Positions 227 through 17,364 of a stretch of DNA of 18,068 nt are shown here, in pieces; within the stretch, counting starts at the first letter, position 1, and each line of letters starts with the position of its first letter. Source of the stretch: an uncultured Bacilli bacterium. Its GTDB lineage: Bacteria > Bacillota_I > Bacilli_A > RF39 > UBA660. The stretch spans positions 1 to 18,068 of the forward strand of contig CAKOMC010000028.1 in the NCBI GenBank assembly GCA_934096535.1, in the 5' to 3' direction. The notes under the pieces are model-generated. The model was not told where the DNA came from and did not search any database. It saw only the letters and a list, made by a program, of their open reading frames with translations. A program made the position numbers and the translations under genes.

Positions 227-455
227 AACTTTTAAAAATCTGAAAAGATCACTTTCGGATTTTTAAGCAATATAGTTTATAATCATTAAAACTAGTCTAA
301 TGATATCTATATTATATATTTAGGTAAATTGCCAAGGACTAACCTTGTTTCCAATCTATAATAGATTATTTTCTTAAAAGAAAATTACTTCTTATATTAA
401 TAGTCGTAACCATTAATCACTAGTGGCATAAATCTAAATCTATCTTAGTAGGAAT

Positions 456-568: not shown

Positions 569-881
569 CAAGAGCAAGGCAAGTAAATAGCAACATAAAA
601 AGGTTAATCCTAGAGCCTATGCTCCATCCTCATTATAAGCTATTTTTTTATAATTTAAAATACTTCCCTATCACTAATTTTGATAAGGAAGTAAATAATA
701 CAGTATCTAACTATTAAATCTCGTCTAACAGTATCTATATTTTATCTTCTGACATAGTCATGGTAATATCTTGTTTCCAATCTATAATAGATTATTTTCC
801 TAAAAGAAAATTACTTCTTATATTAATAGCCGTAGCCATTAATCATTAGTGGCATAAATCTAAATCTATCTTAGTAGGAAT

Positions 882-994: not shown

Positions 995-1384
995 GAGAAA
1001 AATCTTGGACATGAATGTAAGGATATTACCAAGAATCTTAAAATATTTTACTCACAAATGCAAATTAACTATATTTTTTAGGCTGTATAACGATAATTTT
1101 TTACTACCACAATAAATATTTTAATATTCCAATAACATTATAATATATTTTTTAAAATAAAACACTCCCCTATTAATATTTTTAATAGAAAAGTGCAACA
1201 ATATAGTTTATAATCGCTAAATCATGTTCAGTGATATCTATACTTTATCTTTAGGATACCCTAGGATAAGCCTTGTTTCCAATCTATAAATAGATTATTT
1301 TCTTTAAAGAAAATTACTTCTTATATTAATAGCCGTAACCATTAATCATTAGTGTCATAAATCTAAATCTATCTTAGTAGGAAG

Positions 1385-1494: not shown

Positions 1495-1809
1495 AAACGG
1501 TAAAACCAGTAAGGCCAATCAATCATTAATAGACTTACCCCGAGATTACAAACTTTTGTAACTCTTCTTGATTATATCATAACTTGTAAAAAAAATAAAA
1601 GAACCACCTAGTAGGTGGCAGCAGCATAGTATCTAACTATTAAATCTCGTCTAACAGTATCTATACCATATATTTAGGTTAATACCTAGGCTACACCTTG
1701 TTTCCAATCTATAAATAGATTATTTCCTTTAAAGAAAATTACTTCTTATATTAATAGCCGTAACCATTAATCACTAGTGTCATAAATCTAAATCTATCTT
1801 AGTAGGAAT

Positions 1810-1922
1810 CTGGGCGGGCACCAATACTGTTGTTAACACCCCACCAGTTGTTGAGATAACCAGCGCTATTCTGATTCCACTCATTAGCAGCGCCGTTCGT
1901 CGCATTAAAGTTAGAAGGGGAC
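1810..1922 (-). repeat. DGR template repeat TR4 (113 nt), cognate template of the current VR
   Basis: The - strand reads SPSNFNATNGAANEWNQNSAGYLNNWWGVNNSIGARP (10 AAY codons). It aligns without gaps to VR 5043..5155 with 11 mismatches, all at adenines of the TR. Unit signals: TATAAT (- strand) at 1994..1999; hairpin CCACCT-AGT-AGGTGG at 1604..1618 followed on the - strand by TTCTTTTATTTTTTTT. Confidence 0.9.
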
Positions 1923-2249
1923 AAAGTAGTACGCTGAAAAAACAATAAGGATTTAGATGTAGCCTAAAGGCTTTATGCCTTCTTCTAAATTATATTATAA
2001 CTTCACGGTTTTTAAAACAAATATTTTCTAATAATCAAAAAGCTCTCCGAAGAGAGCAACCAACATAGTATCTAATTATTAAATCATGTCTAATAATATC
2101 TATGCTATTTATTTAGGAATAAATTCCAAGAAAAAACCTTGTTTCCAATCTATAATAGACCATTTTCTTAAAAGAAAATTACTTCTTATATTAATAGCCG
2201 TAGCCATTAATCACTAGTGTCATAAATCTAAATCTATCTTAGTAGGAAT

Positions 2250-2362: not shown

Positions 2363-2655
2363 TAATAATCCCGTAGTTCTGTAGGCTTTCTCTAGAGCAC
2401 TTTTGCTCTACTTCTATTATAGTACATTTTTGATTATTTAAAACCACCTTAATCGGTGGTTAAAATTTAGTATAGTTAATAATTATTAAATCATGTCTAA
2501 TAATATCTATACTATTTATTTAGGAATATTTCCAAGAAAAAGCCTTGTTTCCAATCTATAATAGATTATTTTCTTAAAAGAAAATTACTTCTTATATTAA
2601 TAGTCGTAGCCATTAATCATTAGTGTCATAAATCTAAATCTATCGTAGTAGGAAT

Positions 2656-2768: not shown

Positions 2769-3073
2769 CAAAAGTAGCTCCTTGGTTTTGTAGACTTTCT
2801 CTAGAGCTCTGCTCCACTTCTATTATAATACAGTTTTATAATTTATATTATTTAAATTTTAAAAGACTCTCCGTAGAAAGTCTTAGCAACATAGTTTCCA
2901 ACTAATAAATCATGTCTAATAGTATCTATGCTATATCTTTAGGCAAATTGCCATGGTTAAACCTTGTTTCCAATCTATAATAGATTATTTTCTTAAAGAA
3001 AATTACTTCTTATATTAATAGTCGTAGCCATTAATCATTAGTGTCATAAATCTAAATCTATCTTAGTAGGAAT

Positions 3074-3186
3074 CTGGGCGGGCACCAAGACTGTTAGTAA
3101 CGTCCCACCAAGTATTGAGGTTGCCAGCGCTATTCTGATTCCACTCATTAGCATTGCCCCATGTCGCATCAAAGTTAGAAGGGGAC
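3074..3186 (-). repeat. DGR template repeat TR7 (113 nt)
   Basis: The - strand reads SPSNFDATWGNANEWNQNSAGNLNTWWDVTNSLGARP. Unit signals: TATAAT (- strand) at 3257..3262; hairpin 2864..2883 (8 bp, one G-U on the - strand) followed by a T-rich tract. Confidence 0.75.
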
Positions 3187-3323
3187 TGGATAAGGCGCTG
3201 TAACAGACAATGAAGGTTTTAGGTAAAACCAGAAGACCAAATAGCCTTCGTTTAAAATTATAATATAAATAATTGAAGCTTAAAATACCTCACCTACTCT
3301 TGCTAATTATTTAGTCTAAATAG

Positions 3324-3499: not shown

Positions 3500-4435
3500 A
3501 TGAAAAGCAAGAAAGAAATCCAAAGAACATTAAAAGAAAATAAAGGTGCCGATTTTGTTCTACCGATGACTTGGGATGTAATGTTCGAGCAAATGTTTAT
3601 TTCTGAGGAAGCCATGCCCTTACTTGAGTGTATTATTTCAATATTCGGTAATGTCGATATAAAAGATGTTAAAGGTAAAGTTAGATTATTACCAAACGAA
3701 TTAAAACAAACATCGGCAAAAGATACGAGGAGTAAAAGCGATATAATTGCTGATTATTTTAAAGACGAAAAAAATATTGATAAGTATATTGTGGAAATGA
3801 ATTCATCAAGGAAGATGCCTTGGCATAATGTTTTCTATGCTTATAAAGTAGCTGGTGGCGGTATTTCTATTAATGATGATAAATATGTTAAGGCTTACGA
3901 CACTATCTTAATTGATTTTAACACATTTGCGGATAGCGAAAATGACTTGGTAGAAATGATCACTATGCGTTACAAAACTTGTAAAATCTTTGATGATAGT
4001 ACTAAAATATTCGAAGTAAATATGGCAAAAGCAAAAGATATGAGTTATAATTATGTCGATAAACAAGAAGAACAAGTAGCCATAATTAGTAGAATGTTTA
4101 TGACTACAAGTTCACTTGAGTTGGATAAGGAGTCAGATAAGCTTATGAGTAAAAAAGATACAGAAAAATTAGTTAGTCGTGCCAAAGAATTATCGAGTGA
4201 TGATGGTTATATTAGACTTTTTGATGAAGAAGAAAACTATAAGGAGCTAATTCGTAATACCGAGTTAGCAGAAGCTCATGAAAAAGGTAAATTAGAAGGC
4301 AAGTTAGAAGGCTCTGAAGAAAGAGCATTAGAAATTGCTAAAAAGTGTTTAGAAAAAAACATGAATATTGATACAATTGCAGAACTTACTAGCTTATCAG
4401 TTAAGGAAATTGAAGCTTTAAAGAAAGAAGCTTAA
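3500..4435 (+). CDS. PD-(D/E)XK nuclease-family putative transposase (Rpn / PDDEXK_2-like), left copy
   Basis: 311-aa ORF. Its N-terminal WDVMFEQMF...SKSDIIADY...KYIVEMNSS pattern fits the D...(D/E)xK-type core of this family. The C-terminal EKGKLEGKLEG..ALEIAKKCLEKNMNIDTIAELTSLSVKEIEAL tail is typical of Rpn/YhgA-like proteins. It is a paralogue of 9466..10440. The assignment comes from remembered family patterns and has not been checked by a search. Confidence 0.6.
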   Translation: MKSKKEIQRTLKENKGADFVLPMTWDVMFEQMFISEEAMPLLECIISIFGNVDIKDVKGKVRLLPNELKQTSAKDTRSKSDIIADYFKDEKNIDKYIVEMNSSRKMPWHNVFYAYKVAGGGISINDDKYVKAYDTILIDFNTFADSENDLVEMITMRYKTCKIFDDSTKIFEVNMAKAKDMSYNYVDKQEEQVAIISRMFMTTSSLELDKESDKLMSKKDTEKLVSRAKELSSDDGYIRLFDEEENYKELIRNTELAEAHEKGKLEGKLEGSEERALEIAKKCLEKNMNIDTIAELTSLSVKEIEALKKEA

Positions 4436-4967: not shown

Positions 4968-6995
4968 TTACTGAACAACATATGGATCAGAACTTGTTCC
5001 AATACCGGAAGTTATCAGAGTATCAGATTTCAGATTGATAACTGGGCGGGCACCAAGACTGCCGTTAACACCCCACCAGTTGCTGAGATAACCAGCGCTA
5101 CTCTGACGCCACTCAAAAGCAGCGCCGTACGTCGCATCAAAGTTAGAAGGGGACATGGTCCAATAGTGTTGAGTTGAATAAACCCATGCCAATTTATTTA
5201 CATGATCATAATCCATACCAGCAAATACTAATTCGTCATATGTAACTAAACCAACTGGATATGTTAAAGCTTTATTACCTATACTTGAATCGGTTGTTGT
5301 GTATAAATCTCTCTCTTTGTTTGGACATGTAAATTGAGGACTTTTAGTTTGATATCTTTTAAAAGGTCCAAAATAACTATACACATTAGTGCTTATACCA
5401 TCTCCACCTGTCAAAGTTCTGTCGCCACAGAAACCAACGGCATTTGATACATAGTTACTATATCCTTTATCAACGATATTAGTTTTGTACCAATTATCTA
5501 CAGTTGTTTTAATTGTTGACGATGTTGTGTTTGTATGGACTTCATCAAATGTTGTACCATCCGGATTTCCATACATATATCCGACATAAGCAGGATCATT
5601 ATAATTACTATTAAATTGGTAAGTTCTATTATTAATTGATTGTTTTGTACTAGTTGCATTTTTTTCTGTACCATTATACATCAATCTTATTGAACCATCA
5701 CCATTAATACGAACTATTTGCCAATAGAAACCAGCAAAATATACATTATTATTTTTTATATTGCCACGATAATAATAAGTTGTACCATAATCATCTGTTC
5801 CTTGATACAAGCCCCTATCAGATTTATCGGTTTCCAACTCAGTTTCTGTTAAAGTAATAGCATTTAATTTATAAGTTACACTATCATATGAAACATTATT
5901 CCATGTTGTTTTGCCTGTTGTCTTTGTAGCACCAGTAACCTGATATACAGTTAGACTACCACCACTAGATGAAGTATATAATTTTTGATTTACTTTGTTA
6001 TATTGAATACTTTCAGCTTGAAAATAATATTTTATATCACCGCTATAATCAAGAGTTGTTGGATCAACATATACTGGATTTGACAATGTATATGTAGCAG
6101 TTGCACTATTAAATGACTTCGTTTTAAATAAACGTAACTTTGTATCATTCAATGCCAAGTTGCTAGCCTGCGTTGCTTTATCAACTGTACCAGTATCTTT
6201 ATTATAAGAATTTATAACACTTTCTGCTGGCTTTGTAGATGATACTGTTGTTGTACCACCCGTTTTTTCTACCCATTTTATTACTGGAGCTGTATTAGTT
6301 ACATCAACAGTTTGTTTAGCAGCAATCTTAGTTTTAGCTATAGCAGGTGTTGTTTGATATTCATTAGCTAAAATTGCTTCTCCTAGCTTATTATAACCAG
6401 CAGATACAGGACTGTAATTACCTGGTTCTGATACAATAACTACTTTTGATTTAAAAATTTTATTCATTACATCATCATTAATCGTCGCATCTTCATCCAT
6501 CCAGAAGGATACAGTATAATCAACTGTATCATCAGCGCCCAAATAACCTTCGGCAATTGTCCTTGCCTCAGTTGATCCCGTCATTGTTGTTGTCGCTGTT
6601 TTATATTTATCTAATGTAGTAATTGCATCACTGTTAATCTTAGTAGCAACCCATTTACTATTTAAAGTTGTACCCTCTAACATTTCTAAATTAACATAAT
6701 AATGAGCAAAAATCGAACAACTATTCCTTAAAGTAAAACTAAATGGTTTTAATTTTAACCCTTCAGCATCAGTTATTGGATAAGCATTAGTTAAGTTAAT
6801 TTCATCTTTTTGATCAGTAAGTTCAATATTAAAACATCCCGATGTTGCCGTATTTGCTTTATCAGCAATATAAGTAAAACGCCAATAAGCATAAGAAACC
6901 CCCACAGTTGCAAGCCCAATAATACAGCATGTTAAAACCAACATTAAAACATGATATTTATTAGGTGTATTTTTTTTAATTCTCTTATCATTCAT
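4968..6995 (-). CDS. DGR target (variable) protein: N-terminal membrane anchor/signal, Thr/Ser-rich extracellular region, C-terminal lectin-like variable domain
   Basis: 675-aa ORF. The N-terminus is KYHVLMLVLTCCIIGLATVGVSYAYW, a hydrophobic anchor followed by an AYW motif reminiscent of TasA/camelysin-type signals. The C-terminus is ...HYWTMSPSNFDATYGAAFEWRQSSAGYLSNWWGVNGSLGARPVINLK and contains the VR. The W..S....A...G...ARPV layout resembles the CLec/DUF1566-type DGR variable domains. Confidence 0.85.
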   Translation of the reverse strand: MNDKRIKKNTPNKYHVLMLVLTCCIIGLATVGVSYAYWRFTYIADKANTATSGCFNIELTDQKDEINLTNAYPITDAEGLKLKPFSFTLRNSCSIFAHYYVNLEMLEGTTLNSKWVATKINSDAITTLDKYKTATTTMTGSTEARTIAEGYLGADDTVDYTVSFWMDEDATINDDVMNKIFKSKVVIVSEPGNYSPVSAGYNKLGEAILANEYQTTPAIAKTKIAAKQTVDVTNTAPVIKWVEKTGGTTTVSSTKPAESVINSYNKDTGTVDKATQASNLALNDTKLRLFKTKSFNSATATYTLSNPVYVDPTTLDYSGDIKYYFQAESIQYNKVNQKLYTSSSGGSLTVYQVTGATKTTGKTTWNNVSYDSVTYKLNAITLTETELETDKSDRGLYQGTDDYGTTYYYRGNIKNNNVYFAGFYWQIVRINGDGSIRLMYNGTEKNATSTKQSINNRTYQFNSNYNDPAYVGYMYGNPDGTTFDEVHTNTTSSTIKTTVDNWYKTNIVDKGYSNYVSNAVGFCGDRTLTGGDGISTNVYSYFGPFKRYQTKSPQFTCPNKERDLYTTTDSSIGNKALTYPVGLVTYDELVFAGMDYDHVNKLAWVYSTQHYWTMSPSNFDATYGAAFEWRQSSAGYLSNWWGVNGSLGARPVINLKSDTLITSGIGTSSDPYVVQ
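5043..5155 (-). repeat. DGR variable repeat (VR) with 3' GC-rich IMH-like element
   Basis: 113 nt, collinear with TR4 1810..1922. The - strand reads SPSNFDATYGAAFEWRQSSAGYLSNWWGVNGSLGARP. It ends in GGTGCCCGCCCAG (5043..5055 on +), then diverges from all TRs (TTATCAATCTG versus ATTCCTACTAAG). Confidence 0.9.
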
Positions 6996-7093: not shown

Positions 7094-7471
7094 TTATCTT
7101 AAGATATCTAAAATATTTTCTAATTGTTTATTAACTTCTTCTAAACTTAATCTATTTAATTTATATTTTATTAAATCAACTTTTTTATCTATTTCTACTT
7201 GTAATAAACCTTCATTTAAATATTTTTGATAAGTATTATTTTCTTGAAAATCTTTAGATATTTCTAATTCTTTTTTATAATATATTTGATAATTAATCGA
7301 TAATTCTTCTAATTTTTCTATTATTTTATCTATTATAGTACTAGGAAATCCTAATTTATCATTTTTACCCTCTCCTACTAGTTTATAATTAAAAATACTA
7401 TGTAAAATATAAGCATCTTCATTATAACAAGTTATAAATTTTCCATCATTTTTATATAATTTTATAAACAT
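7094..7471 (-). CDS. Small DGR-associated protein resembling MutS mismatch-binding domain I (MSL-type accessory candidate)
   Basis: 125-aa ORF between the RT and the target gene. GKFITCYNEDAYILHSIFNYKL..GKNDKLGFPSTIIDKIIEKLEELSINYQI parallels the MutS N-terminal pattern GDFYELFxxDAxxxSxxLxIxLT....xMxGxPxxxxxxYxxKLxxxGxxVxI. The similarity was judged by eye only. Confidence 0.45.
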   Translation of the reverse strand: MFIKLYKNDGKFITCYNEDAYILHSIFNYKLVGEGKNDKLGFPSTIIDKIIEKLEELSINYQIYYKKELEISKDFQENNTYQKYLNEGLLQVEIDKKVDLIKYKLNRLSLEEVNKQLENILDILR

Positions 7472-7481
7472 ACTCTACTCC

Positions 7482-8681
7482 TTAATCGTAAATAACTATT
7501 ACTTCATCTTTTTTCTTTTTAACTTTCATATCCATTCCTTTAAACCAAGGGTGTTTTCTAATAAATGAACCGCTGCAACAATTACTTAGATAGCCTTTAT
7601 AACTAGCTAAGACACTTGTATAGTTTTCTGGGGGATTCTTTTCTAATTTATTTAGTTTATGGGTTATTCTTCTTTTCGTTTGACTATTAATAAGTACTAA
7701 TAGTTTTTTATTTTTTAAAACAAAACGATATCCTAAGAAATTAAGACCATCTTTCATCGATATTATTTTTGTTTTTTGATTCAATTTTAATTCTTCAGCA
7801 GCTACTTTTTTTCTGATTTCTTCTAAACAATATTTTAGATATTCTCTATCAGGATGCATTAGAATAAAATCATCCATATAACGAATATAGTATTTAATAT
7901 GTAGTTGTTCTTTAATAAAATGGTCTAAGTCATTTAAGTAATAAATAGCAAATAGTTGACTAGTCATATTCCCTATTGGTAAACCTCTTCCTTCTTGATA
8001 ATAAGGAATAGTACTTAGTTCTTCAAACCTTTTTTTCATATAAGGATTATTAGCTTTTCTTAAGATTTCTTTTTCACAATCAACTAATCTTTTTATTTGA
8101 CTATTAGTATTATTTTGATAAGTTGAAGTTAAAATACTCTTAATTGCCTCTATTACTTCTTCATCAGGTAAAATATTACGCAGTTTTTCAATTAATTTTT
8201 CATGACTAATACTATAAAAGTATTTATGAATATCACATTTTAATATATAGAAATTATCATATTTTCTTTTTAAATGATTAATATAGTCTTTGGTGTAAGA
8301 CAGTCCTAATTTAAGACCTTTATCTCTTCTTGTTGCCACATTCATAGGAATAAGTCGTGGTTCAATTAAGGGTAATAAGATATATTCGCTTATTAAATGG
8401 TTAACAACTTTATCAAAGATATTTTCGCTCATTATAATACGATATTTCGGCTCTTTTACTAAGAAAACATTGTAGTTACTATGATGATAAGATTTAGTTT
8501 TTAAGGTTTCATAAATATTTATGATATTACTCATATAATAGGTTTCAAAGTTAACAATTTTACTACGATGTTTGGTTTTTAATCTAACTTCATAATACAT
8601 ATTTTCAATATATGGAATATTTACAATTGAATCATAAAGATTAGTTTTGTTCTTTAGATTCAGAACTTCTGATGATGCCAT
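7482..8681 (-). CDS. DGR-type reverse transcriptase
   Basis: 399-aa ORF. Motif 4, LPIGNMTSQLFA (IGNMTSQ encoded at 7956..7976), carries the [ILV]GxxxSQ signature of DGR RTs. The catalytic YMDD is encoded at 7869..7880, followed by LNFLGYRF. The gene sits directly downstream of avd, overlaps it by 41 nt, and lies upstream of a VR-bearing gene. Confidence 0.92.
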   Translation of the reverse strand: MASSEVLNLKNKTNLYDSIVNIPYIENMYYEVRLKTKHRSKIVNFETYYMSNIINIYETLKTKSYHHSNYNVFLVKEPKYRIIMSENIFDKVVNHLISEYILLPLIEPRLIPMNVATRRDKGLKLGLSYTKDYINHLKRKYDNFYILKCDIHKYFYSISHEKLIEKLRNILPDEEVIEAIKSILTSTYQNNTNSQIKRLVDCEKEILRKANNPYMKKRFEELSTIPYYQEGRGLPIGNMTSQLFAIYYLNDLDHFIKEQLHIKYYIRYMDDFILMHPDREYLKYCLEEIRKKVAAEELKLNQKTKIISMKDGLNFLGYRFVLKNKKLLVLINSQTKRRITHKLNKLEKNPPENYTSVLASYKGYLSNCCSGSFIRKHPWFKGMDMKVKKKKDEVIVIYD

Positions 8682-9012
8682 AGGCTATCTTTCTCGCTTC
8701 TATTATTATATTTGATAAACATTCTAACTGATGGGAACTTATATATTTTTTATGATACAATTCTCTTGCATAATAATCATACATGGATAATTTTACTATG
8801 TAATCATAGAGATGTTTTTCTTTAACACGATTCGTCCTTTGCAAATTGTAAGCAAAGATATTTTCCATCATATCATATTGACATTCTTCAATATGTCTTT
8901 TGAGATTGGAAGCTTTCTTAGGAACATTTGGTAAAAGTCGATTTAGATAAGCTAAAGCCCTCTCCGTTTGGGATAATAATCTAAATTTATTTTCCATTAT
9001 TTGGGTTGTCAA
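8641..9012 (-). CDS. avd: Accessory variability determinant (Avd-like, helical bundle)
   Basis: ~120-aa basic, helix-rich ORF immediately 5' of the RT and overlapping it, which is the canonical Avd position and size. The start is uncertain. The ORF-track start at 9012 is TTG and overlaps a TATAAT box; ATG at 8997 (MENKFRLL..) is the more likely start. Confidence 0.7.
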   Translation of the reverse strand: MTTQIMENKFRLLSQTERALAYLNRLLPNVPKKASNLKRHIEECQYDMMENIFAYNLQRTNRVKEKHLYDYIVKLSMYDYYARELYHKKYISSHQLECLSNIIIEARKIAYGIIRSSESKEQN

Positions 9013-9037
9013 TTATACTCATAGTATCATTGTACCA
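9012..9037 (-). promoter_or_regulatory. Candidate promoter(s) of the avd-RT operon
   Basis: On the - strand there is TGGTACAAT (extended -10, 9029..9037) and TATAAT (9012..9017), just upstream of the avd ATG at 8997. Confidence 0.3.
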
Positions 9038-9100
9038 GATTTTTATCAGATTGGAAGATTTTTTTATTATTATTGATATTAAAAAGGAGTCTAGATTGAT

Positions 9101-9445
9101 TTAGTCTAAACTTCCATTTTTGGATTTTAAGCTTTCTATTTCTTTAATTGATAAGCCAGTTAATTTAGATATTGTTTTTTGCATCTAACCCAGTATTTAA
9201 AGCATTTTTAGTTAAATTTATGGTTGCAGCCTTTAAACCTTTTTTCAATGTCACGCCTCTCAGCTTCTTCCCTAGCTTCTGCAAGTTCCGTATTACGAAT
9301 TAACTCTTTATAGTTATCTTCTTCACCATTTTCAAACAGTCTAATTATTCATCATCATTTGATAATTCTTTGGCTCTTACCACAATTTTTTTAGTTTATT
9401 CTTTACTCATAATTTCTTTTACATTTTTCTTAAATATACTATATA
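9101..9445 (-). pseudogene. Decayed 3' fragment of an Rpn-like gene (tandem partial duplicate of 9466..10440)
   Basis: 9230..9420 aligns with 9610..9800 (..GCTTCTTCCCTNGCTTCTGCAAGTTCCGTATTACGAATTAACTCTTTATAGTTATCTTCTTCACCATTTTCAAACAGTCTAAT..) but has a 1-nt deletion (AATTATTC versus AATGTATTC) and further substitutions. 9110..9180 still encodes ..ISKLTGLSIKEIESLKSKNGSLD*. Only the C-terminal third is present and the frame is broken. Confidence 0.8.
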
Positions 9446-9465
9446 TAAATTCAATTTTAACTGAG

Positions 9466-10440
9466 TTAGCATAAATCATTTATTTCTTTAATGGATAAAC
9501 CTGATGACTCAGAAATAATGTCTATGCTAATGCCCGCTTTTTTTAAATTTTTAGCTATATCTATTGCTTTTATTTTAGAACCCTGAATTATTCCTTTTTC
9601 TATTCCTTTTTTAATTCCTTTTTCAAGACCGCGCTCCTCGGCTTCTTCCCTGGCTTCTGCAAGTTCCGTATTACGAATTAACTCTTTATAGTTATCTTCT
9701 TCACCATTTTCAAACAGTCTAATGTATTCATCATCACTTGATAATTCTTTGGCTCTTGCTACAATTTTTTTAGTTTCTTCTTTACTCATAATTTCATTTA
9801 ACTCTCTTTCTAATACTTTAATATCGCATGTAGTTAAAATCCTACATATTCTTGCCATTTTCTCTTCCTGTTCATTAAAATAAGTATACCGCTTATTTAA
9901 AGCTTTATCTATATTAACATTAATAATTTTAATGCTATCTTCAATAATTTTACCAAAATCAGTTTGAAATATTCCAATTTCAACTAATCGTTCAGATTTA
10001 TGATGATAGGAATTAAAATTTACTACGATAGTGTCGAATATTTTTCTATATGCTCCATTTTTTATTTTCAAATCGCTACTTGCAATTTTATAAGCATAAA
10101 AGGCATTTCTCATTACCATAATATGTGATGAATTCATTTCTAAAATACATTTAGTTTCTTTTTTTCCATTAGGATAAGAAAGTAATAAATCACTTTTACT
10201 ATTGGTATCAATTATTGAATGCTGTGGTAAGTCTTTAGGCAGTAATTTAACTTTGCCTTTAAAATTTTGCTTAGTTGTATCTTCTATGGTGGAAACTATA
10301 TACTCTATTAAAGGCATAGTATCACTGGAAATGAACATCTGGTTAAACATAACATCCCAAGCAAGTGGAAAACTAAAGCCGGTAATGTTATGTTCCTTAT
10401 TGTAATGCCACATCTTTATGATTTTCTGTTTTTCTAGCAT
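9466..10440 (-). CDS. PD-(D/E)XK nuclease-family putative transposase (Rpn / PDDEXK_2-like), right copy
   Basis: 324-aa ORF, homologous along its whole length to 3500..4435. Compare WDVMFNQMFIS / WDVMFEQMFIS, SKSDLLLSY / SKSDIIADY, ILEMNSS / IVEMNSS, and the AKELSSDDEYIRLF..NYKELIRNTELAEA block. AGGAGGGAG lies 7 nt upstream of the ATG. Confidence 0.6.
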   Translation of the reverse strand: MLEKQKIIKMWHYNKEHNITGFSFPLAWDVMFNQMFISSDTMPLIEYIVSTIEDTTKQNFKGKVKLLPKDLPQHSIIDTNSKSDLLLSYPNGKKETKCILEMNSSHIMVMRNAFYAYKIASSDLKIKNGAYRKIFDTIVVNFNSYHHKSERLVEIGIFQTDFGKIIEDSIKIINVNIDKALNKRYTYFNEQEEKMARICRILTTCDIKVLERELNEIMSKEETKKIVARAKELSSDDEYIRLFENGEEDNYKELIRNTELAEAREEAEERGLEKGIKKGIEKGIIQGSKIKAIDIAKNLKKAGISIDIISESSGLSIKEINDLC

Positions 10441-10500
10441 GTCTAAACTCCCTCCTGTTGTAAATAATTATCATATCTTGTCACCTCCTTTTTTAGAAGG

Positions 10501-10617
10501 TTATTATTTACCATCCTAATTATATATATTGGTAAGTGAAGTCTAATTTCCTTTAAAAATTTTAAAAACATACTAAAAAATGCCAAACTTTTTCTAAATT
10601 TGACACTTTTTTGACAT
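10501..10617. repeat. Right arm of inverted repeat: conserved 5' region of the Rpn-like genes
   Basis: The reverse complement matches 3324..3427 (see the left arm). Confidence 0.85.
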
Positions 10618-10661
10618 ATTTTTCTAAAAATAAGAGGTATTAGCTATATTAATAATCTATT

Positions 10662-11888
10662 CTACTTTTTATAATTAATTGTATATTTATTTAATTCTAA
10701 GGTTTTATTTATTTCGCAATATTTAACTGCAACAATAGTATATTTTCCTGAATTATCAGGTAACTTATTATATTCTGTAGTTGTTTCATTAAAAATGAGA
10801 TAATAATCACCATTAATAATGAAAGAATTAAGAGGTAATAACAACTCCATTTGGTTAATTGTTTCAATGTCATTTGTCCAATTCGGATTATTTTCAATTT
10901 CCTTAAGGATTGCCCCATCATCATTACCTTTATAATCAATAATAATATGAGTAACATCACTTTTTTCTTCTTCAACTGCCGAATAACTACTACTTATAAA
11001 CTTACTACTTGGAATCGTAAAACCAATAACATCATTAAATTTATAAATATCTTCATCATTTATGGTTAAAGAAAATGAACCTAAAAATCCAAGAAGAAAA
11101 ATAGCAAGAAAACTAATTACTAAATTTTTATGATTATTACATCTTTTCTCCCAGAGAAAACTTAAAATAAGGGAAATAATAGGAATTGGCAAGAAACACC
11201 AAGCAATCCAGAAATACTTAGTATTAAAAAAGCCAGTACTTGGAAACTTACTAGTTAAATGAATAACTAAATAAAAGGCTGCAAAAATACTTAATAAACT
11301 TAAGCAAAACAAGATATCCATTATCTTTTGCTCTTTTTTATTATATCTATTTATTAAATCAAATTCTTTTTTAAAAGGAAGACCAGAAAACTTACGGTTA
11401 ATAAACTTATTTAAATCACCAGAAATACTTTCTTTTTTTAAAATGATAAACCCTTTATTACTTCTAATTTCTAAGTAAAAATTGTCTTCTGTTTCAATAA
11501 ACTTAACTATATCTTTATAAAATACTTTTCTAGCTTGTAAACTACTACTAGCAATTAAATAATCAATATAAAAATCATACCTATTAGAAATCTTACCTTC
11601 TTCATTGTATTTTCTAAATTTTTTCGTCATTACTTTATCATAATTAATAGTTAAACTTATCAAATTAATAATCTCTAAAATTACTAAAGAAATTAAAAAG
11701 TTAAAAAGACTATGATAATAAGTACCTAGTAGAATACTTACTAAAATAAGAAAAATAGAATTTATTAAAACCTTTAGCCAATATACTTTTGGAAAATACT
11801 TAAGACACAATAAGTAATCACTCGTATTAACCTTCTCTTCTAAGGTATAAATAGCCTTATCTTTAATTTTTAAAATATTATCATTCAT
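10662..11888 (-). CDS. Multi-pass membrane protein with N-terminal YcxB-like region
   Basis: 408-aa ORF. It has two hydrophobic helices after residue ~35, then ..VFYKDIVKFIETEDNFYLEIRSNKGFIILKKE.., which resembles YcxB-family domains. Further TM helices and a C-terminal soluble domain follow. Function unknown. Confidence 0.5.
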   Translation of the reverse strand: MNDNILKIKDKAIYTLEEKVNTSDYLLCLKYFPKVYWLKVLINSIFLILVSILLGTYYHSLFNFLISLVILEIINLISLTINYDKVMTKKFRKYNEEGKISNRYDFYIDYLIASSSLQARKVFYKDIVKFIETEDNFYLEIRSNKGFIILKKESISGDLNKFINRKFSGLPFKKEFDLINRYNKKEQKIMDILFCLSLLSIFAAFYLVIHLTSKFPSTGFFNTKYFWIAWCFLPIPIISLILSFLWEKRCNNHKNLVISFLAIFLLGFLGSFSLTINDEDIYKFNDVIGFTIPSSKFISSSYSAVEEEKSDVTHIIIDYKGNDDGAILKEIENNPNWTNDIETINQMELLLPLNSFIINGDYYLIFNETTTEYNKLPDNSGKYTIVAVKYCEINKTLELNKYTINYKK

Positions 11889-11930
11889 AAACTACACACT
11901 CTTTTCTAAGATATTATTAAGATTATTATA

Positions 11931-11964
11931 GCAAAAAAACTACTTATCAAGGCCAATAAGTAGT
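11931..11964 (-). terminator. Rho-independent terminator after the YihY-family gene
   Basis: 9-bp stem ACTACTTAT (11939..11947) / ATAAGTAGT (11956..11964), followed on the - strand by TTTTTTGC. Confidence 0.6.
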
Positions 11965-11969
11965 TATAA

Positions 11970-12785
11970 TTATTTAATTTTTTTCGTTTCACTTTTCCGA
12001 TAGTTTAGAGCCATTCCTATCACAAAAATATTAGCTAACAAATAAAACCATAACAAGAGAATTACTAAGTTAGCAAGACCACCATAAAAAACAGAATAAT
12101 GAGCATAATGATTGATATAGAATGAATAAATCCAAGTTATAACTAACCACCCAATAGATGTAAAAATTGCCCCATAATTAACATTTTTAGATGGTATTCT
12201 AACATCGGGAGCCATGGCATAAATTATCTTAATAAACAAAAAGATGATAAAAAGGGCAAAAGGACCTTGTAAAAAATCAAATATTTTTTTTAGTTCTTCC
12301 GTAACTTTAGCATTTAAGTTAACATAGGTTACTAGTTCAACTATTTTGTTACCAAATAAAGGGAATATTAAGATAAATAGAAACAAGAAGACAATAAAGA
12401 CGGTCATAACTAGGGCTTTAATTTTACGATAGATATAACCTTTATCCTCAATACCATAAATCATATTAGATGTTATGATGATAGCAGATGCGCCACTAGA
12501 TGCGGTAAAAAAGCCGATAAATAAGGTTACAAAGAAGGAAAACGATAACCCACTTACCGAAACAATAGGGATAATCATTTGACTAATGGTACTCCCAAAA
12601 GCTTTCGTGATAAATTCTTCTATAAAACCAATTGATAGATTTAAACCGGCAGCTCCATACCCAATTAATGTTAAGATAGGAACGATAGAAAGGATAAAAG
12701 AAAAAGCAAGATGTCCAGGCAGAATCAGCATTTCTCTTCTATTAAGCACTTCCCAAAAGTTTTTAATAAACTCTTTTACTTTCAT
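11970..12785 (-). CDS. YihY/BrkB-family (ribonuclease BN-like) integral membrane protein
   Basis: 271-aa ORF. The N-terminal ..REMLILPGHLAFSFILSIVPILTLIGY.. segment and the ~6 TM layout are characteristic of this family. Confidence 0.7.
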   Translation of the reverse strand: MKVKEFIKNFWEVLNRREMLILPGHLAFSFILSIVPILTLIGYGAAGLNLSIGFIEEFITKAFGSTISQMIIPIVSVSGLSFSFFVTLFIGFFTASSGASAIIITSNMIYGIEDKGYIYRKIKALVMTVFIVFLFLFILIFPLFGNKIVELVTYVNLNAKVTEELKKIFDFLQGPFALFIIFLFIKIIYAMAPDVRIPSKNVNYGAIFTSIGWLVITWIYSFYINHYAHYSVFYGGLANLVILLLWFYLLANIFVIGMALNYRKSETKKIK

Positions 12786-12787
12786 TG

Positions 12788-14827
12788 CTACTCCTTAAGA
12801 CTATTTTCTTGCTTTTTGATTTTCATATCTTCAACTGCTTCGTTTAAAGCGTCTTCGACTAATTTTTTATCACTATCAATCATACTATGACCAATAGATG
12901 CCCCAAAATCATATGGCATATTTTTTAATTCTTTGGTTAATTTTTTTATGTAACTAACAACTTGTCTTTCATCATAACCAACTAAGTAGATTAAGAATTC
13001 AGTTCCATCAGTACGAACAATATCACTATTATCTAGTTGAGTTCTAATTAAGATATTGGCCGCAGCTTTAATTTGGGCATCACCCTTTTCATAACCTAGG
13101 GTATCATTAATTTCTTGAATACGATTTAAATCTACAACCACCATAGCTTGCGGATAAATAGTATTCTTATTCCAAGATGAGGCATTTTCCATTAAATAAT
13201 TACGATTCTTTAATGAAGTTAATTGGTCAATATATCTAATTTTTTCTTCTTTTTTAATTTTTTTCGATATTTTAATTTTTCTTGCTCTTTTAAATAAGAT
13301 ATAAATTAAAACTACAAAGACTATTAAAAAATATAAAATATATTTAGCAATAGTTCCTAAAATAGTCCCACTATCTAAGGTTGTTTTATAACTATTTAAG
13401 CCATCAATTCTTATAATACTTGCATCACTTAAAGTTATATAAGCTTTAAATAGTTTCGTAAAGGCATTATTTTCTCTAAGTTTAAAAGTATATGGAGTAT
13501 TAAGACTACCCGTATATCTTGGACTATAATCTTTTAAAGTTGTACTAGCTACATCTAAATAAGTATCATAGTCAACAACCGCAATAATGTCATTATTAGC
13601 TAATGATTTTAACTCACTAGTCTTTTTATAAGTCTTTAAGTCAATCCCATTAATATTTTTCAAATTCTCATAGATAATACTATCTTGCATAACATAAACA
13701 GTCTTATTTTGTAAAGAGTTTAAGGAATTAACAACTAAGTTATTTTTACGACTAGCTATAACATAATATTTAATATCCATATTAGTAGTAATAGTTTCAT
13801 AATTATTAGTTAAGTTATAATAATTAAAGTATAAATCTATTGAATTATTATTAATAGCATTTGTTAATTGTTTATAAGTACGATATTTAATATATTTAAA
13901 ATCAACATCCGCCATTTCACTAAAGTTTTTTAAGTAAATAGAGACAATTCCCCCATAGTTACCCCCTAAAATAATTTCATAAGGGTTATTATTAACAAAA
14001 CCATAGTTATAAATACGAGATTTAATTTCTTTTTGTTCAACTTCGCTTAATTTAATACTCTTAACAATAGTATTTTTTAAATTAGTATTAAAGGCATTTT
14101 TATATTTTTTATTTTGCCATTTACTATAATATTTCTTAATAATACTACTAAAATTATCATCTAACATATAGTAACCATAATATTTTTTAATATCACTAAA
14201 TTCATAAACAATACTATAGTTATTTTCTAAGGTTTCCCCGGCAAATTCGTATTTAGGTACAATAATATATTCTAAGTCTTTTTTGAAGGCTTCTTTTAAA
14301 GTTTCATAAGTATCATATTCTTTAAATTCTATATTACTATCTTCCTTAAAATAGCTCTTGATATAATCAAGGTCTTTTTTTAAGACTCCGACTTTAATAT
14401 TTTTAATAGCTTCTAGATTATTATAATATACATAATCTTTTTTAATTAATGCGTAGTTATCAGCATAAAATTCCACAAATTTATCGTTTTTAGTATTAGT
14501 GGTAATAAATCCACTAGTAGCACTTTCATCTTTACTCGTATAAGTTACAGGATTGATTTTAAGATTATACTCTTTACCTAAATCATTTAAAAAGTCATAA
14601 AAGATACCAGTCCCACCATTACCAAAGATATCTAAATCATTAATAACATTAACATTTAAAACGGTCGATAGGTTATTATTTATCCATTTATTTTCTTCAA
14701 CTGTCAGTTTATTTTCATCATTTAAGATATGGACAACCACTAAAGATACGATTGTTATAATGATAATACCTAAAAAGGACGCAAAAATCAGTCTTACTTT
14801 TTTGGCCATACTATTCACCATCATCAC
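12788..14827 (-). CDS. Membrane sensor with large extracytoplasmic region and C-terminal degenerate GGDEF domain
   Basis: 679-aa ORF with an N-terminal TM, ~480 aa of extracytoplasmic sequence, and a second TM (ILGTIAKYILYFLIVFVVLIYIL). These are followed by DQLTSLKNRNYL...VVVDLNRIQEINDTLGYEKGDAQI...RTDGTEFLIYL, a GGDEF fold whose signature reads DGTEF. The likely true start is ATG 14809 (MAKKV..), preceded by GGTGA. Confidence 0.75.
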   Translation of the reverse strand: MMMVNSMAKKVRLIFASFLGIIIITIVSLVVVHILNDENKLTVEENKWINNNLSTVLNVNVINDLDIFGNGGTGIFYDFLNDLGKEYNLKINPVTYTSKDESATSGFITTNTKNDKFVEFYADNYALIKKDYVYYNNLEAIKNIKVGVLKKDLDYIKSYFKEDSNIEFKEYDTYETLKEAFKKDLEYIIVPKYEFAGETLENNYSIVYEFSDIKKYYGYYMLDDNFSSIIKKYYSKWQNKKYKNAFNTNLKNTIVKSIKLSEVEQKEIKSRIYNYGFVNNNPYEIILGGNYGGIVSIYLKNFSEMADVDFKYIKYRTYKQLTNAINNNSIDLYFNYYNLTNNYETITTNMDIKYYVIASRKNNLVVNSLNSLQNKTVYVMQDSIIYENLKNINGIDLKTYKKTSELKSLANNDIIAVVDYDTYLDVASTTLKDYSPRYTGSLNTPYTFKLRENNAFTKLFKAYITLSDASIIRIDGLNSYKTTLDSGTILGTIAKYILYFLIVFVVLIYILFKRARKIKISKKIKKEEKIRYIDQLTSLKNRNYLMENASSWNKNTIYPQAMVVVDLNRIQEINDTLGYEKGDAQIKAAANILIRTQLDNSDIVRTDGTEFLIYLVGYDERQVVSYIKKLTKELKNMPYDFGASIGHSMIDSDKKLVEDALNEAVEDMKIKKQENSLKE

Positions 14828-15296
14828 TTACCGGATTGTTATTGTTCCAGATTAAGTTTGTACCATTAACATTTTTAGAACCCATGATAGTAAAGCCATC
14901 ACTGGATTCATCCTTAGCACTTACTAAGGTAAAATGAATGTCATAAAAGCCTTTTTCCTCATTACTAAATTGCTCTAAAGTTTTAGCCGCTACCGCCTTT
15001 GATGTAGTAAGATCAGCCCCAGCTTTAAAAACAATACGAATATAAATGATTTTACCACTTACTTCAACTTTAGCATCATCGACATTTTTACCTTCTTTAA
15101 TGCTATTTACAAGACTTTCTTTTTTAGTATCATTAATCTCTACGGCCTCAATACCATCTAAACGATCACCATATTTAGACCCTCCATTGCCAAAGTAAAA
15201 GTACTTAAGTAATAAGGCAACGCTAATACCAATACAAGCGATAATTATTAAAACCATGAAACAAATTGCTTTATTATTACGAATAAATTTTTTCAA
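14811..15296 (-). CDS. Small membrane-anchored hypothetical protein
   Basis: 161-aa ORF with a TTG start at 15296 preceded by AAGAGGTG. It has an N-terminal TM (AICFMVLIIIACIGISVALLL) and no recognisable motif. Confidence 0.55.
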   Translation of the reverse strand: MKKFIRNNKAICFMVLIIIACIGISVALLLKYFYFGNGGSKYGDRLDGIEAVEINDTKKESLVNSIKEGKNVDDAKVEVSGKIIYIRIVFKAGADLTTSKAVAAKTLEQFSNEEKGFYDIHFTLVSAKDESSDGFTIMGSKNVNGTNLIWNNNNPVSDDGE

Positions 15297-15336
15297 AATT
15301 ACACCTCTTTCTGTAAATTGATTATACTATATATTT

Positions 15337-17364
<2,028 letters not shown>

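Follow-up and report, generated by a model that had tools for sequence, protein, structure and literature searches.

How can one reverse transcriptase (RT) make use of a whole series of template repeats (TRs) that lie kilobases away from its own gene? The question is raised by a diversity-generating retroelement (DGR) in an 18,068-nucleotide stretch from an uncultured Bacilli bacterium (contig CAKOMC010000028.1 of assembly GCA_934096535.1; henceforth the window, meaning this stretch at its full length), in which seven tandem TRs are each followed by a copy of one conserved module of ~190 nt. The original prediction took this module for a recognition and priming RNA of the RT and its accessory protein Avd, detached from the RT gene. 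The analysis presented below establishes that the module is a real and widespread structured RNA. Moreover, each repeat is very probably a self-contained template-RNA gene, with the module as the cis-acting handle by which the Avd-RT complex recognizes it in trans.

One variable repeat and seven template units

The locus is a bona fide DGR with one variable repeat (VR) and seven TRs, since a DGR-type RT and an Avd-like protein are accompanied by template-to-variable differences that fall on adenines: TR4, the current donor, differs from the VR at 11 positions, every one of them an adenine in TR4. The other six TRs show 21–28 mismatches to the VR, many of them at non-adenines. TR and VR share identical ends of 22 nt at the 5' side and 15 nt at the 3' side. 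The avd and RT genes, an accessory open reading frame (ORF) of the MutS-like (MSL) type, the target gene carrying the VR and all seven TR units lie on the minus strand (Table 1).

The units extend in tandem from 196 to ~3270, each with a TR of 108–111 nt, and every copy of the module starts directly 3' of a TR ending in ...GGTGCCCGCCCAG. Mean pairwise identity across the seven units is 95.3% in the 113-nt core of the module and 98% at the two TR ends, compared with 71% in the middle of the TR, 69.8% in the distal ~75 nt of the module, 36% in the leaders and only 27.5% in the terminator regions. These figures bear out the original description of ~113 nearly identical nucleotides followed by a more loosely conserved distal part, and the sequence and coordinates quoted for the block of unit 4 (1697..1809, minus strand) are exact. 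Because the core has remained so similar next to leaders and terminators that have not, recent duplication alone fails as an explanation, as had been argued at the outset. Each unit further possesses its own TATAAT-like box (read from the sequence upstream of the leader in all seven), 5' hairpin and terminator-like hairpin, all of them consensus matches. The short 5' hairpins are specific to their units (on the minus strand, ~1968–1985 in unit 4, 2393–2410 in unit 5 and 3232–3249 in unit 7); situated just downstream of the TATAAT-like box and upstream of, or overlapping, the leader strand described below, such a hairpin would open each TR transcript.

Covariation of the module among related retroelements

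Since the seven copies of the window are too similar to one another for a test of the core, relatives were fetched: homologues of the RT number in the thousands, and from an RT alignment we obtained 80 genomic loci, which come from metagenome-assembled genomes of uncultured gut Bacilli and from CAG genomes (e.g., Mycoplasma sp. CAG:956). A hidden Markov model of the module sequence gave matches in ~45 of these, without exception on the strand of the RT. A covariance model, built from the seven window copies with seven hand-specified helices, retrieved 120 copies at E<=0.01 from the window and the 80 RT-related loci, all of them in RT orientation and each starting right behind the 3' end of a TR-like repeat, and homologous modules persist in loci whose RTs are only 45–60% identical. 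The same model found no match in 713 kb of unrelated viral DNA carrying the most conserved 14-mer of the module, AGATTGGAAACAAG, whose occurrences in viral contigs are a matter of chance and were used only as this negative control. A search of the whole window against Rfam release 15 at E<=1 returned no matching family, the only hit being a chance microRNA match elsewhere.

Pair statistics were computed on the covariance-model alignment, which comprises 114 distinct sequences and 50 modelled pairs. Standard pairs occupy 93.7% of the pair cells, against 30–43% when the partners are slid by 1–3 columns; compensatory changes on both sides are seen at 46 of the 50 pairs (1034 cells), and none of 500 shuffles reached any of the observed measures. 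G.U cells are far more numerous than A.C cells (463 vs 59), and the structure therefore belongs to the RNA of RT sense. As this alignment had been fitted to the model, the analysis was rerun blind to structure: RNAalifold, given 29 diverse copies aligned with MAFFT, again returned the apex of hairpin P2, hairpins P3 and P4, and both the outer and the inner helix of P7. Joint folding for covariation, here carried out on the alignment of the relatives, and a model search in genomes with related RTs were the computational checks named along with the original prediction, and both came out in its favour.

Each module holds seven local helices and takes part in two long-range ones. The three hairpins that had been proposed at first all exist (1750–1771, 1722–1739 and 1706–1721), and the closing pairs of the first vary among the seven copies as described (C-G in two, U-G in two, C-A in two and U-A in one); however, this set was incomplete, and to it are now added P1, two covarying distal hairpins, a helix between UUCC and GGAA, and a duplex between leader and module. 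P2, which is the second hairpin after the TR and not the first, bears the apex GGCUACGGCU, the same motif as in the predicted Avd-binding stem-loops of other Bacillota DGRs (Handa et al. Table S3). P4 has a counterpart of the form AAUC-GAAA-GAUU in loci L006 and L011. The short hairpin P6 is followed by an A-rich stretch with a conserved UAAA, and a stem-loop followed by UAAA is the signature of the cPRT-Stop element in Handa et al. Table S3. Between this stretch and P7 comes a conserved single-stranded UAUAGAU, and P7 occupies the position of the RT-binding stem-loop in the spacer (Sp) RNA of phage BPP-1. A long-range pairing of GAUAGAUU with AAUCUAUU, returned by RNAalifold for the seven near-identical copies, was rejected; the diverged homologues support a local P1 (AUUAGUA..UACUAAU type) and the local P4 (AAUC-GAAA-GAUU).

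Two long-range helices around the template

The first long-range helix joins UUCC, placed one nucleotide past the end of the TR (CCCAG-A-UUCC in unit 4 and CCCAG-N-UUCC generally), to a GGAA that, with the ACA following it, forms part of the near-invariant GAUUGGAAACAAG. It spans ~100 nt and encloses hairpins P1 to P4. Compensatory variants occur in the form of UACC:GGUA in two copies of locus L078 and of CUCC:GGAG in two copies of one other locus. We had also considered the CACUAR of the module and the UUGGUG at the 3' end of the TR as a primer duplex; in the structure-blind alignment, C[C/U] of that motif pairs with [G/A]G across P2, and this candidate was dropped in favour of UUCC:GGAA, which has compensatory support.

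The second helix, hereafter the stop duplex, is formed by the ~11 nt that follow GGAAACA and a strand in the leader of the same unit. It measures 10–13 bp in all seven units of the window, with a sequence that differs from unit to unit (Table 1); in unit 4 it has 12 bp and a predicted energy of −19.7 kcal/mol. For a test across loci, the best duplex of the 14-nt segment after GGAAAC was sought within the 240 nt upstream. Of 106 units from all loci, 86 had it 120–165 nt before the module, in the stretch that adjoins the TR on its upstream side, and 54 distinct stop-strand sequences were represented. Cognate duplexes average −12.9 kcal/mol and non-cognate ones −7.8 kcal/mol (Mann-Whitney p = 2e-39). 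Duplexfold runs of 45-nt leaders against whole modules were heavily bulged and uninterpretable, whereas the 14 nt after GGAAAC gave clean duplexes. The leaders, originally described as unconserved, are indeed so in sequence, but their unit-by-unit covariation shows that each carries a partner strand for its own module, and the TR is thus looped out between two helices. Because each leader pairs in this manner with its own module, the predicted functional unit comprises leader, TR and module together.

A model for the use of the template units

We propose that a unit, read from its promoter, would consist of the short 5' hairpin, the leader strand of 10–13 nt, a spacing of ~30 nt, the 111-nt TR, the ~190-nt Sp module and the terminator. 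The Avd-RT complex, encoded 4–8 kb away, would recognize this RNA in trans via the module and copy the TR. In this process P2 may dock on Avd, as suggested by its position and by its motif identity with the predicted Avd-binding loops of other Bacillota DGRs, and P7, judging from its position, on the RT. In BPP-1, Sp A56 primes and copying begins at TR G117 (Handa 2018, PMC6182149). By analogy, once UUCC is paired with GGAA, as the compensatory changes show, the final A of that strand (A1702 in unit 4) would act as the primer in cis, and the nucleotide after CCCAG (A1809) would be the first to be templated; the latter fits because the VR has a T at the matching position and TR/VR homology ends exactly there. 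The stop duplex, P6 and UAAA would together correspond to the cPRT-Stop element, which on the model of BPP-1 would be required for synthesis and would end the complementary DNA (cDNA) near the leader duplex; in BPP-1 itself, activity did not return when the pairing of the stop duplex was restored. The adenine-mutagenized cDNA would then replace the VR via the identical TR/VR ends; any unit could be the donor because all TRs share the exact 5' and 3' ends of the VR.

Binding of RT and Avd by the module, and priming by it, are what we infer from this architecture. The original equation of the module with a spacer RNA is upheld by the element order of BPP-1, the compensated helices and the constant context of TR, RT and Avd, but needs to be amended in that the leader belongs to the functional RNA. 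The residual uncertainty lies inside the model and concerns the priming nucleotide and which hairpin binds which protein.

Evidence against the model and alternative explanations

A number of points speak against this model. The hairpins are matched to their proteins by position only. The UUCC:GGAA helix consists of 4 bp that are nearly invariant, with two types of variants, each seen twice, in its support. A cDNA that ended at the leader strand, ~34 nt outside the TR/VR homology on the upstream side, would have a non-homologous tail for which there is no obvious need. Pair counts are inflated by the fitting of the alignment to the covariance model, a problem mitigated by the comparison of cognate with non-cognate duplexes and by the structure-blind run. 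The promoters and terminators are consensus matches only. Finally, the assignment of Avd is weak by sequence: its family matches are under the curated cut-offs, and the comparison with the solved BPP-1 Avd (4dwl), at E 0.75, is not significant.

Among the alternatives, the one that fares best, though we consider it unlikely, accepts an Sp-type RNA that binds RT and Avd and places priming elsewhere, be it at the 3'-OH of a nicked RNA, at another nucleotide or on the target DNA, so that UUCC:GGAA merely closes the P1–P4 domain. The shortness and near-invariance of that helix would suit such a scheme; the BPP-1 literature likewise holds two priming models, that of Naorem et al. being the 3'-OH of nicked RNA (PMC5703328), and priming from GGAA is a prediction in this lineage. 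However, the topology is that of BPP-1, with a primer strand 2–3 nt before the strand of the stop duplex and an enclosed Avd-binding loop; furthermore, the compensatory variants preserve the helix, and the predicted start coincides exactly with the end of TR/VR homology, all of which argues for priming within the module.

Very improbable, in our estimate, is the notion that the structured RNA serves mainly in the expression or stability of the TR transcript, as a processing site, protective 3' structure or attenuator, and not in recognition by the RT. Promoter-like and terminator-like sites in each unit of the window are in keeping with it, and so are the tight arrays of loci L006–L008, which would need processing if co-transcribed. 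Nevertheless, a nearly invariant core of 113 nt is not needed for stability, and neither the helix that reaches the 3' edge of the TR nor the duplex by which each unit loops out its own TR finds an explanation. Moreover, the module has motifs in common with the Avd-binding and cPRT-Stop elements predicted for other DGRs, and it is found only beside TRs of this RT clade. Lastly, we give almost no credence to the view that the conservation stems from recent tandem duplication, from gene conversion or from a DNA-level recombination site, with no RNA function: although the units are tandem with identical TR ends, making gene conversion plausible, and Rpn-family nuclease genes flank the locus, identity has dropped to 27–71% in leaders, TR middles and terminators beside a core at 95%, homologues persist at 45–60% RT identity, and the extensive covariation is specific to one strand, G.U far exceeding A.C.

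Arrays, donors and portability

In most of the clade the genes are ordered target(VR)-[TR-Sp]n-(MSL)-avd-RT, with n from 1 to 8, while in the subclade of the window, L001, L004 and L005 the order is avd-RT-MSL-target(VR)-[TR-Sp]n, with n from 6 to 11; arrays arose or expanded in several branches. Nowhere in this clade is the module fused to the RT gene; in most members avd, and often MSL, come in between. Thus, the detachment of the module from the RT gene that had been singled out in the window is real, but it is the normal state for the whole clade; peculiar to the arrangement of the window is the location of the array downstream of the target gene. In the more distant relatives L006–L008 (7122–9642) the TR-Sp units recur with a period of ~335 nt, which leaves no room for separate promoters and terminators; hence, these arrays, unlike the units of the window, may be co-transcribed and processed. 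Locus L003, from Mycoplasma sp. CAG:956 (8127–15862), has three target-like genes around avd-RT-MSL; the Sp module was not found in the 16.7 kb examined there, and TR units may lie beyond the end of the contig.

A sister contig, L081, encodes an RT that is 99% identical to that of the window and has the same gene order, the stretch in question being 8520–8640. Its VR differs from a TR7-like unit at 14 positions, all adenine, with no non-adenine differences, the donor in the window being TR4. For seven further metagenomic VR alleles the indicated donors are TR7-like or are TRs absent from the window. In L001, L005, L008 and L047 one array member, and no other, fits the single adjacent VR without any non-adenine mismatch; the best-fitting member in L006, L007 and L009 shows 1–2 non-adenine mismatches to the VR. 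The position of the donor within the array varies among loci. Because one and the same VR has demonstrably received sequence from two or more members of the array, the TR-module units work in trans and are portable, in agreement with the original prediction. This suggests that a single VR has the templates of the whole array at its disposal as alternatives. More broadly, the TR-Sp units probably constitute a library of autonomous, trans-acting template-RNA genes (seven here and up to at least 11 in relatives) that a single RT-Avd pair uses interchangeably on one VR.

If so, a cell could switch between protein scaffolds, which are set by the non-adenine differences among TRs, and hypermutate each of them, a state of affairs that would represent an RNA-mediated analogue of silent-cassette antigenic variation enabled by the portable leader-plus-Sp handle. 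As each template carries its own module, a whole array of alternatives could rewrite one variable gene, and, judging from the array context, DGR diversification may reach beyond the adenine positions of one template. The minimal portable unit would be the leader strand, the TR and the spacer, served in trans by an RT kilobases off; this is of direct use for engineering programmable DGR mutagenesis, and the covariance model for annotating TRs. The 120 copies, with 114 distinct sequences and heavy covariation, also provide a naturally replicated data set for DGR biology, and they lend strong comparative support from a distant Gram-positive gut lineage to an RNA architecture seen by cryo-electron microscopy (cryo-EM) in one phage.

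Genes and other features of the locus

The avd gene is directly upstream of the RT gene, an arrangement kept across the clade. The best match of the RT in the PDB is to the 8ub7–8ube series, labelled 'Reverse transcriptase' (E 1.4e-30). The ORF between the RT and target genes also adjoins avd/RT in relatives and is consistent with the MSL accessory gene described for Architecture D (Wu et al. 2018). Searches of Pfam and NCBIfam with the target protein yielded no family match. This protein has an N-terminal hydrophobic segment, and the sequence encoded by the VR reads ...SPSNFDATxGxAxEWxQxSAGYLxxWWGVxxSLGARPV. Directly 3' of the VR is an inverted repeat, TATCA-N10-TGATA (5021–5040), which by its position recalls the homing target-site hairpin of BPP-1, yet is AT-rich and has only 5 bp.

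Two inverted Rpn-family paralogues (recombination-promoting nuclease/putative transposase), at 3500–4435 on the plus strand and 9466–10440 on the minus strand, flank the avd-RT-MSL-target core, the first of them lying between the target gene and the TR array. A 205-nt partial duplicate of the second is found just downstream of that gene (9232–9436 vs 9610–9815). The sister contig L081 shows the same Rpn arrangement.

Table 1. Features of the DGR locus in the window, with local helices and signals given for unit 4
Feature	Coordinates	Strand	Remarks
Sp module, unit 1	266..455	-	TR1 456–566; leader stop strand 600–612
Sp module, unit 2	694..881	-	TR2 882–992; leader stop strand 1019–1032
Sp module, unit 3	1197..1384	-	TR3 1385–1492; leader stop strand 1530–1542
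Sp module, unit 4	1620..1809	-	covariance-model score 212 bits
Sp module, unit 5	2059..2249	-	TR5 2250–2360; leader stop strand 2382–2394
Sp module, unit 6	2466..2655	-	TR6 2656–2766; leader stop strand 2791–2803
Sp module, unit 7	2885..3073	-	TR7 3074–3184; leader stop strand 3220–3232
Promoter-like site, unit 4	1989..2016	-	TTTAAA-16-TATAAT; consensus match
Stop duplex, leader strand, unit 4 (UUAGGCUACAUCUA)	1954..1967	-	~34 nt upstream of TR4
TR4	1810..1920	-	current VR donor
UUCC, template-side strand of candidate template:primer duplex	1805..1808	-	pairs with GGAA 1702–1705
P1 hairpin, AUAGAU-UUAG-AUUUAU	1782..1797	-	double changes at 6/6 pairs (114 distinct sequences)
P2 hairpin, 9 bp, UACG (UNCG) tetraloop	1750..1771	-	apex GGYUACGRCU; double changes at 7/9 pairs; candidate Avd-binding stem-loop
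P3 hairpin (ATTTTCT..AGGAAAT)	1722..1739	-	double changes at 7/7 pairs
P4 hairpin, AAUCUA-UUUA-UAGAUU	1706..1721	-	covariance-model helix 4
GGAA, candidate primer strand	1702..1705	-	predicted priming nucleotide A1702
ACA linker after GGAA	1699..1701	-	
Stop duplex, module strand, unit 4 (AGGUGUAGCCU)	1688..1698	-	pairs with 1954–1967; covaries unit by unit
P6 short hairpin	1675..1688	-	double changes at 5/5 pairs; covariance-model helix 5
A-rich stretch after P6 (UAAAUAUA)	1669..1675	-	conserved UAAA
P7 long hairpin with interior loop	1622..1668	-	outer helix 8 bp, inner 9 bp; double changes at 17/17 pairs
Intrinsic terminator, unit 4 (terminator-like hairpin)	1603..1619	-	consensus match
Leader:module strands, unit 1			AGGAUUAACC:GGUUAGUCCU
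Leader:module strands, unit 2			GGUAAUAUC:GAUAUUACC
Leader:module strands, unit 3			GGGUAAGUC:GGCUUAUCC
Leader:module strands, unit 4			AGGCUACA:UGUAGCCU
Leader:module strands, unit 5			AGAGAAAGCC:GGUUUUUUCU
Leader:module strands, unit 6			AGAGAAAGUC:GGCUUUUUCU
Leader:module strands, unit 7			GGUUUUACC:GGUUUAACC; two mismatches
Target gene, 675 aa	4968..6995	-	VR at 3' end
VR	5042..5152	-	~110 nt at 3' end of the target gene's variable part
MSL accessory ORF, 125 aa, between RT and target genes	7094..7471	-	marginal match to MutS_I (MutS domain I)
DGR-type RT	7482..8681	-	hallmark LPIGNMTSQ (IGNxxSQ); RVT_1 match
Avd-like accessory protein	8641..9012	-	Pfam bAvd E 1.6e-8; NCBIfam DivGenRetAVD E 2e-8; both under curated cut-offs

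Comparison with known systems

The closest experimental reference is BPP-1, where cDNA synthesis depends on a 140-nt Sp located 3' of the TR together with ~20 nt on the upstream side of the TR (Handa 2018, PMC6182149; Naorem 2017, PMC5703328). By cryo-EM, the BPP-1 Sp begins with an Avd-binding stem-loop with a UNCG tetraloop, followed by a primer strand paired to the 3' region of the TR in a helix of which four bp are essential, and by two linker nucleotides; then come a strand that pairs over ~11 bp with an upstream segment (the 'cPRT Stop'), a short stem-loop, adenosines that stay unpaired and engage in A-minor contacts, the single-stranded 'thumb ring' and, last, a long RT-binding stem-loop with interior loops (bioRxiv 10.1101/2023.10.23.563531). 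The module of the window is likewise directly 3' of the TR on the same strand, and its elements come as P2, GGAA:UUCC, ACA, the leader-pairing strand, P6, UAAAUAUA, UAUAGAU and P7; the two systems also have in common a DGR RT with Avd and adenine-specific TR-to-VR differences. On the other hand, there is no detectable sequence similarity between Sp and module, and the latter is longer (~190 nt vs 140 nt), the TR and its primer strand being separated by three additional hairpins (P1, P3 and P4). Whereas the template-side strand of BPP-1 is located within the TR, UUCC falls immediately beyond the TR/VR homology, and here the upstream strand is part of a non-coding leader ~34 nt from the TR, whereas in BPP-1 it is the end of avd. 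Further, the RNA here is not contiguous with the avd or RT gene and exists in seven copies with their own promoter-like and terminator-like sites. The functions of the elements were characterized experimentally in BPP-1 and are predicted here from sequence.

Other Bacillota DGRs provide a second comparison. Many of the Bacillota entries in Table S3 of Handa et al. combine a duplex AGGGUUAUCUCU:AGAGGUAAUCCU, a stem-loop with UAAA and an Avd-loop apex GGCUACGGCU (bioRxiv 10.1101/2023.10.23.563531), among them Faecalibacterium prausnitzii A2-165, Lachnospiraceae 7_1_58FAA, Clostridium sp. CAG:575 and CAG:798. The module shares with them the form of the stop duplex (AGGnnnnnnCU:AGnnnnnnCCU), the stem-loop directly followed by UAAA and the UACG-capped apex. 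It differs in the distance of the stop strand from the TR (~113 nt here, 56–97 nt there) and in the presence of seven TR-Sp units (2–11 in relatives) in place of one TR; the structures there are single-sequence folding predictions, whereas here they are backed by covariation over 114 distinct sequences. Thus, the kind of RNA is already known from Handa et al., and the module is an enlarged and multiplied variant of the DGR spacer RNA, its stop strand being placed ~113 nt from the TR in lieu of ~60; less described so far is the array of autonomous TR-spacer genes.

The msr-msd RNA of retrons offers a looser analogy, being a structured noncoding RNA that recruits its RT, supplies a 2'-OH primer from an internal purine and holds the template in cis, as the units of the window may do in their own way. 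However, the RT here is of DGR type with Avd, and its score with the retron RT family model, 46.6 bits, falls far short of the cut-off at 235; the template encodes protein and has a counterpart in the VR, and retron-type a1/a2 inverted repeats flanking the RNA are absent. At the level of the array, a parallel exists with silent-cassette antigenic variation (pilS/pilE, vls, VSG), in which non-expressed and partly divergent copies feed one expressed locus. In the DGR array, the transfer would proceed via RNA and error-prone reverse transcription and not by DNA gene conversion, and each cassette would bring its own RNA handle.

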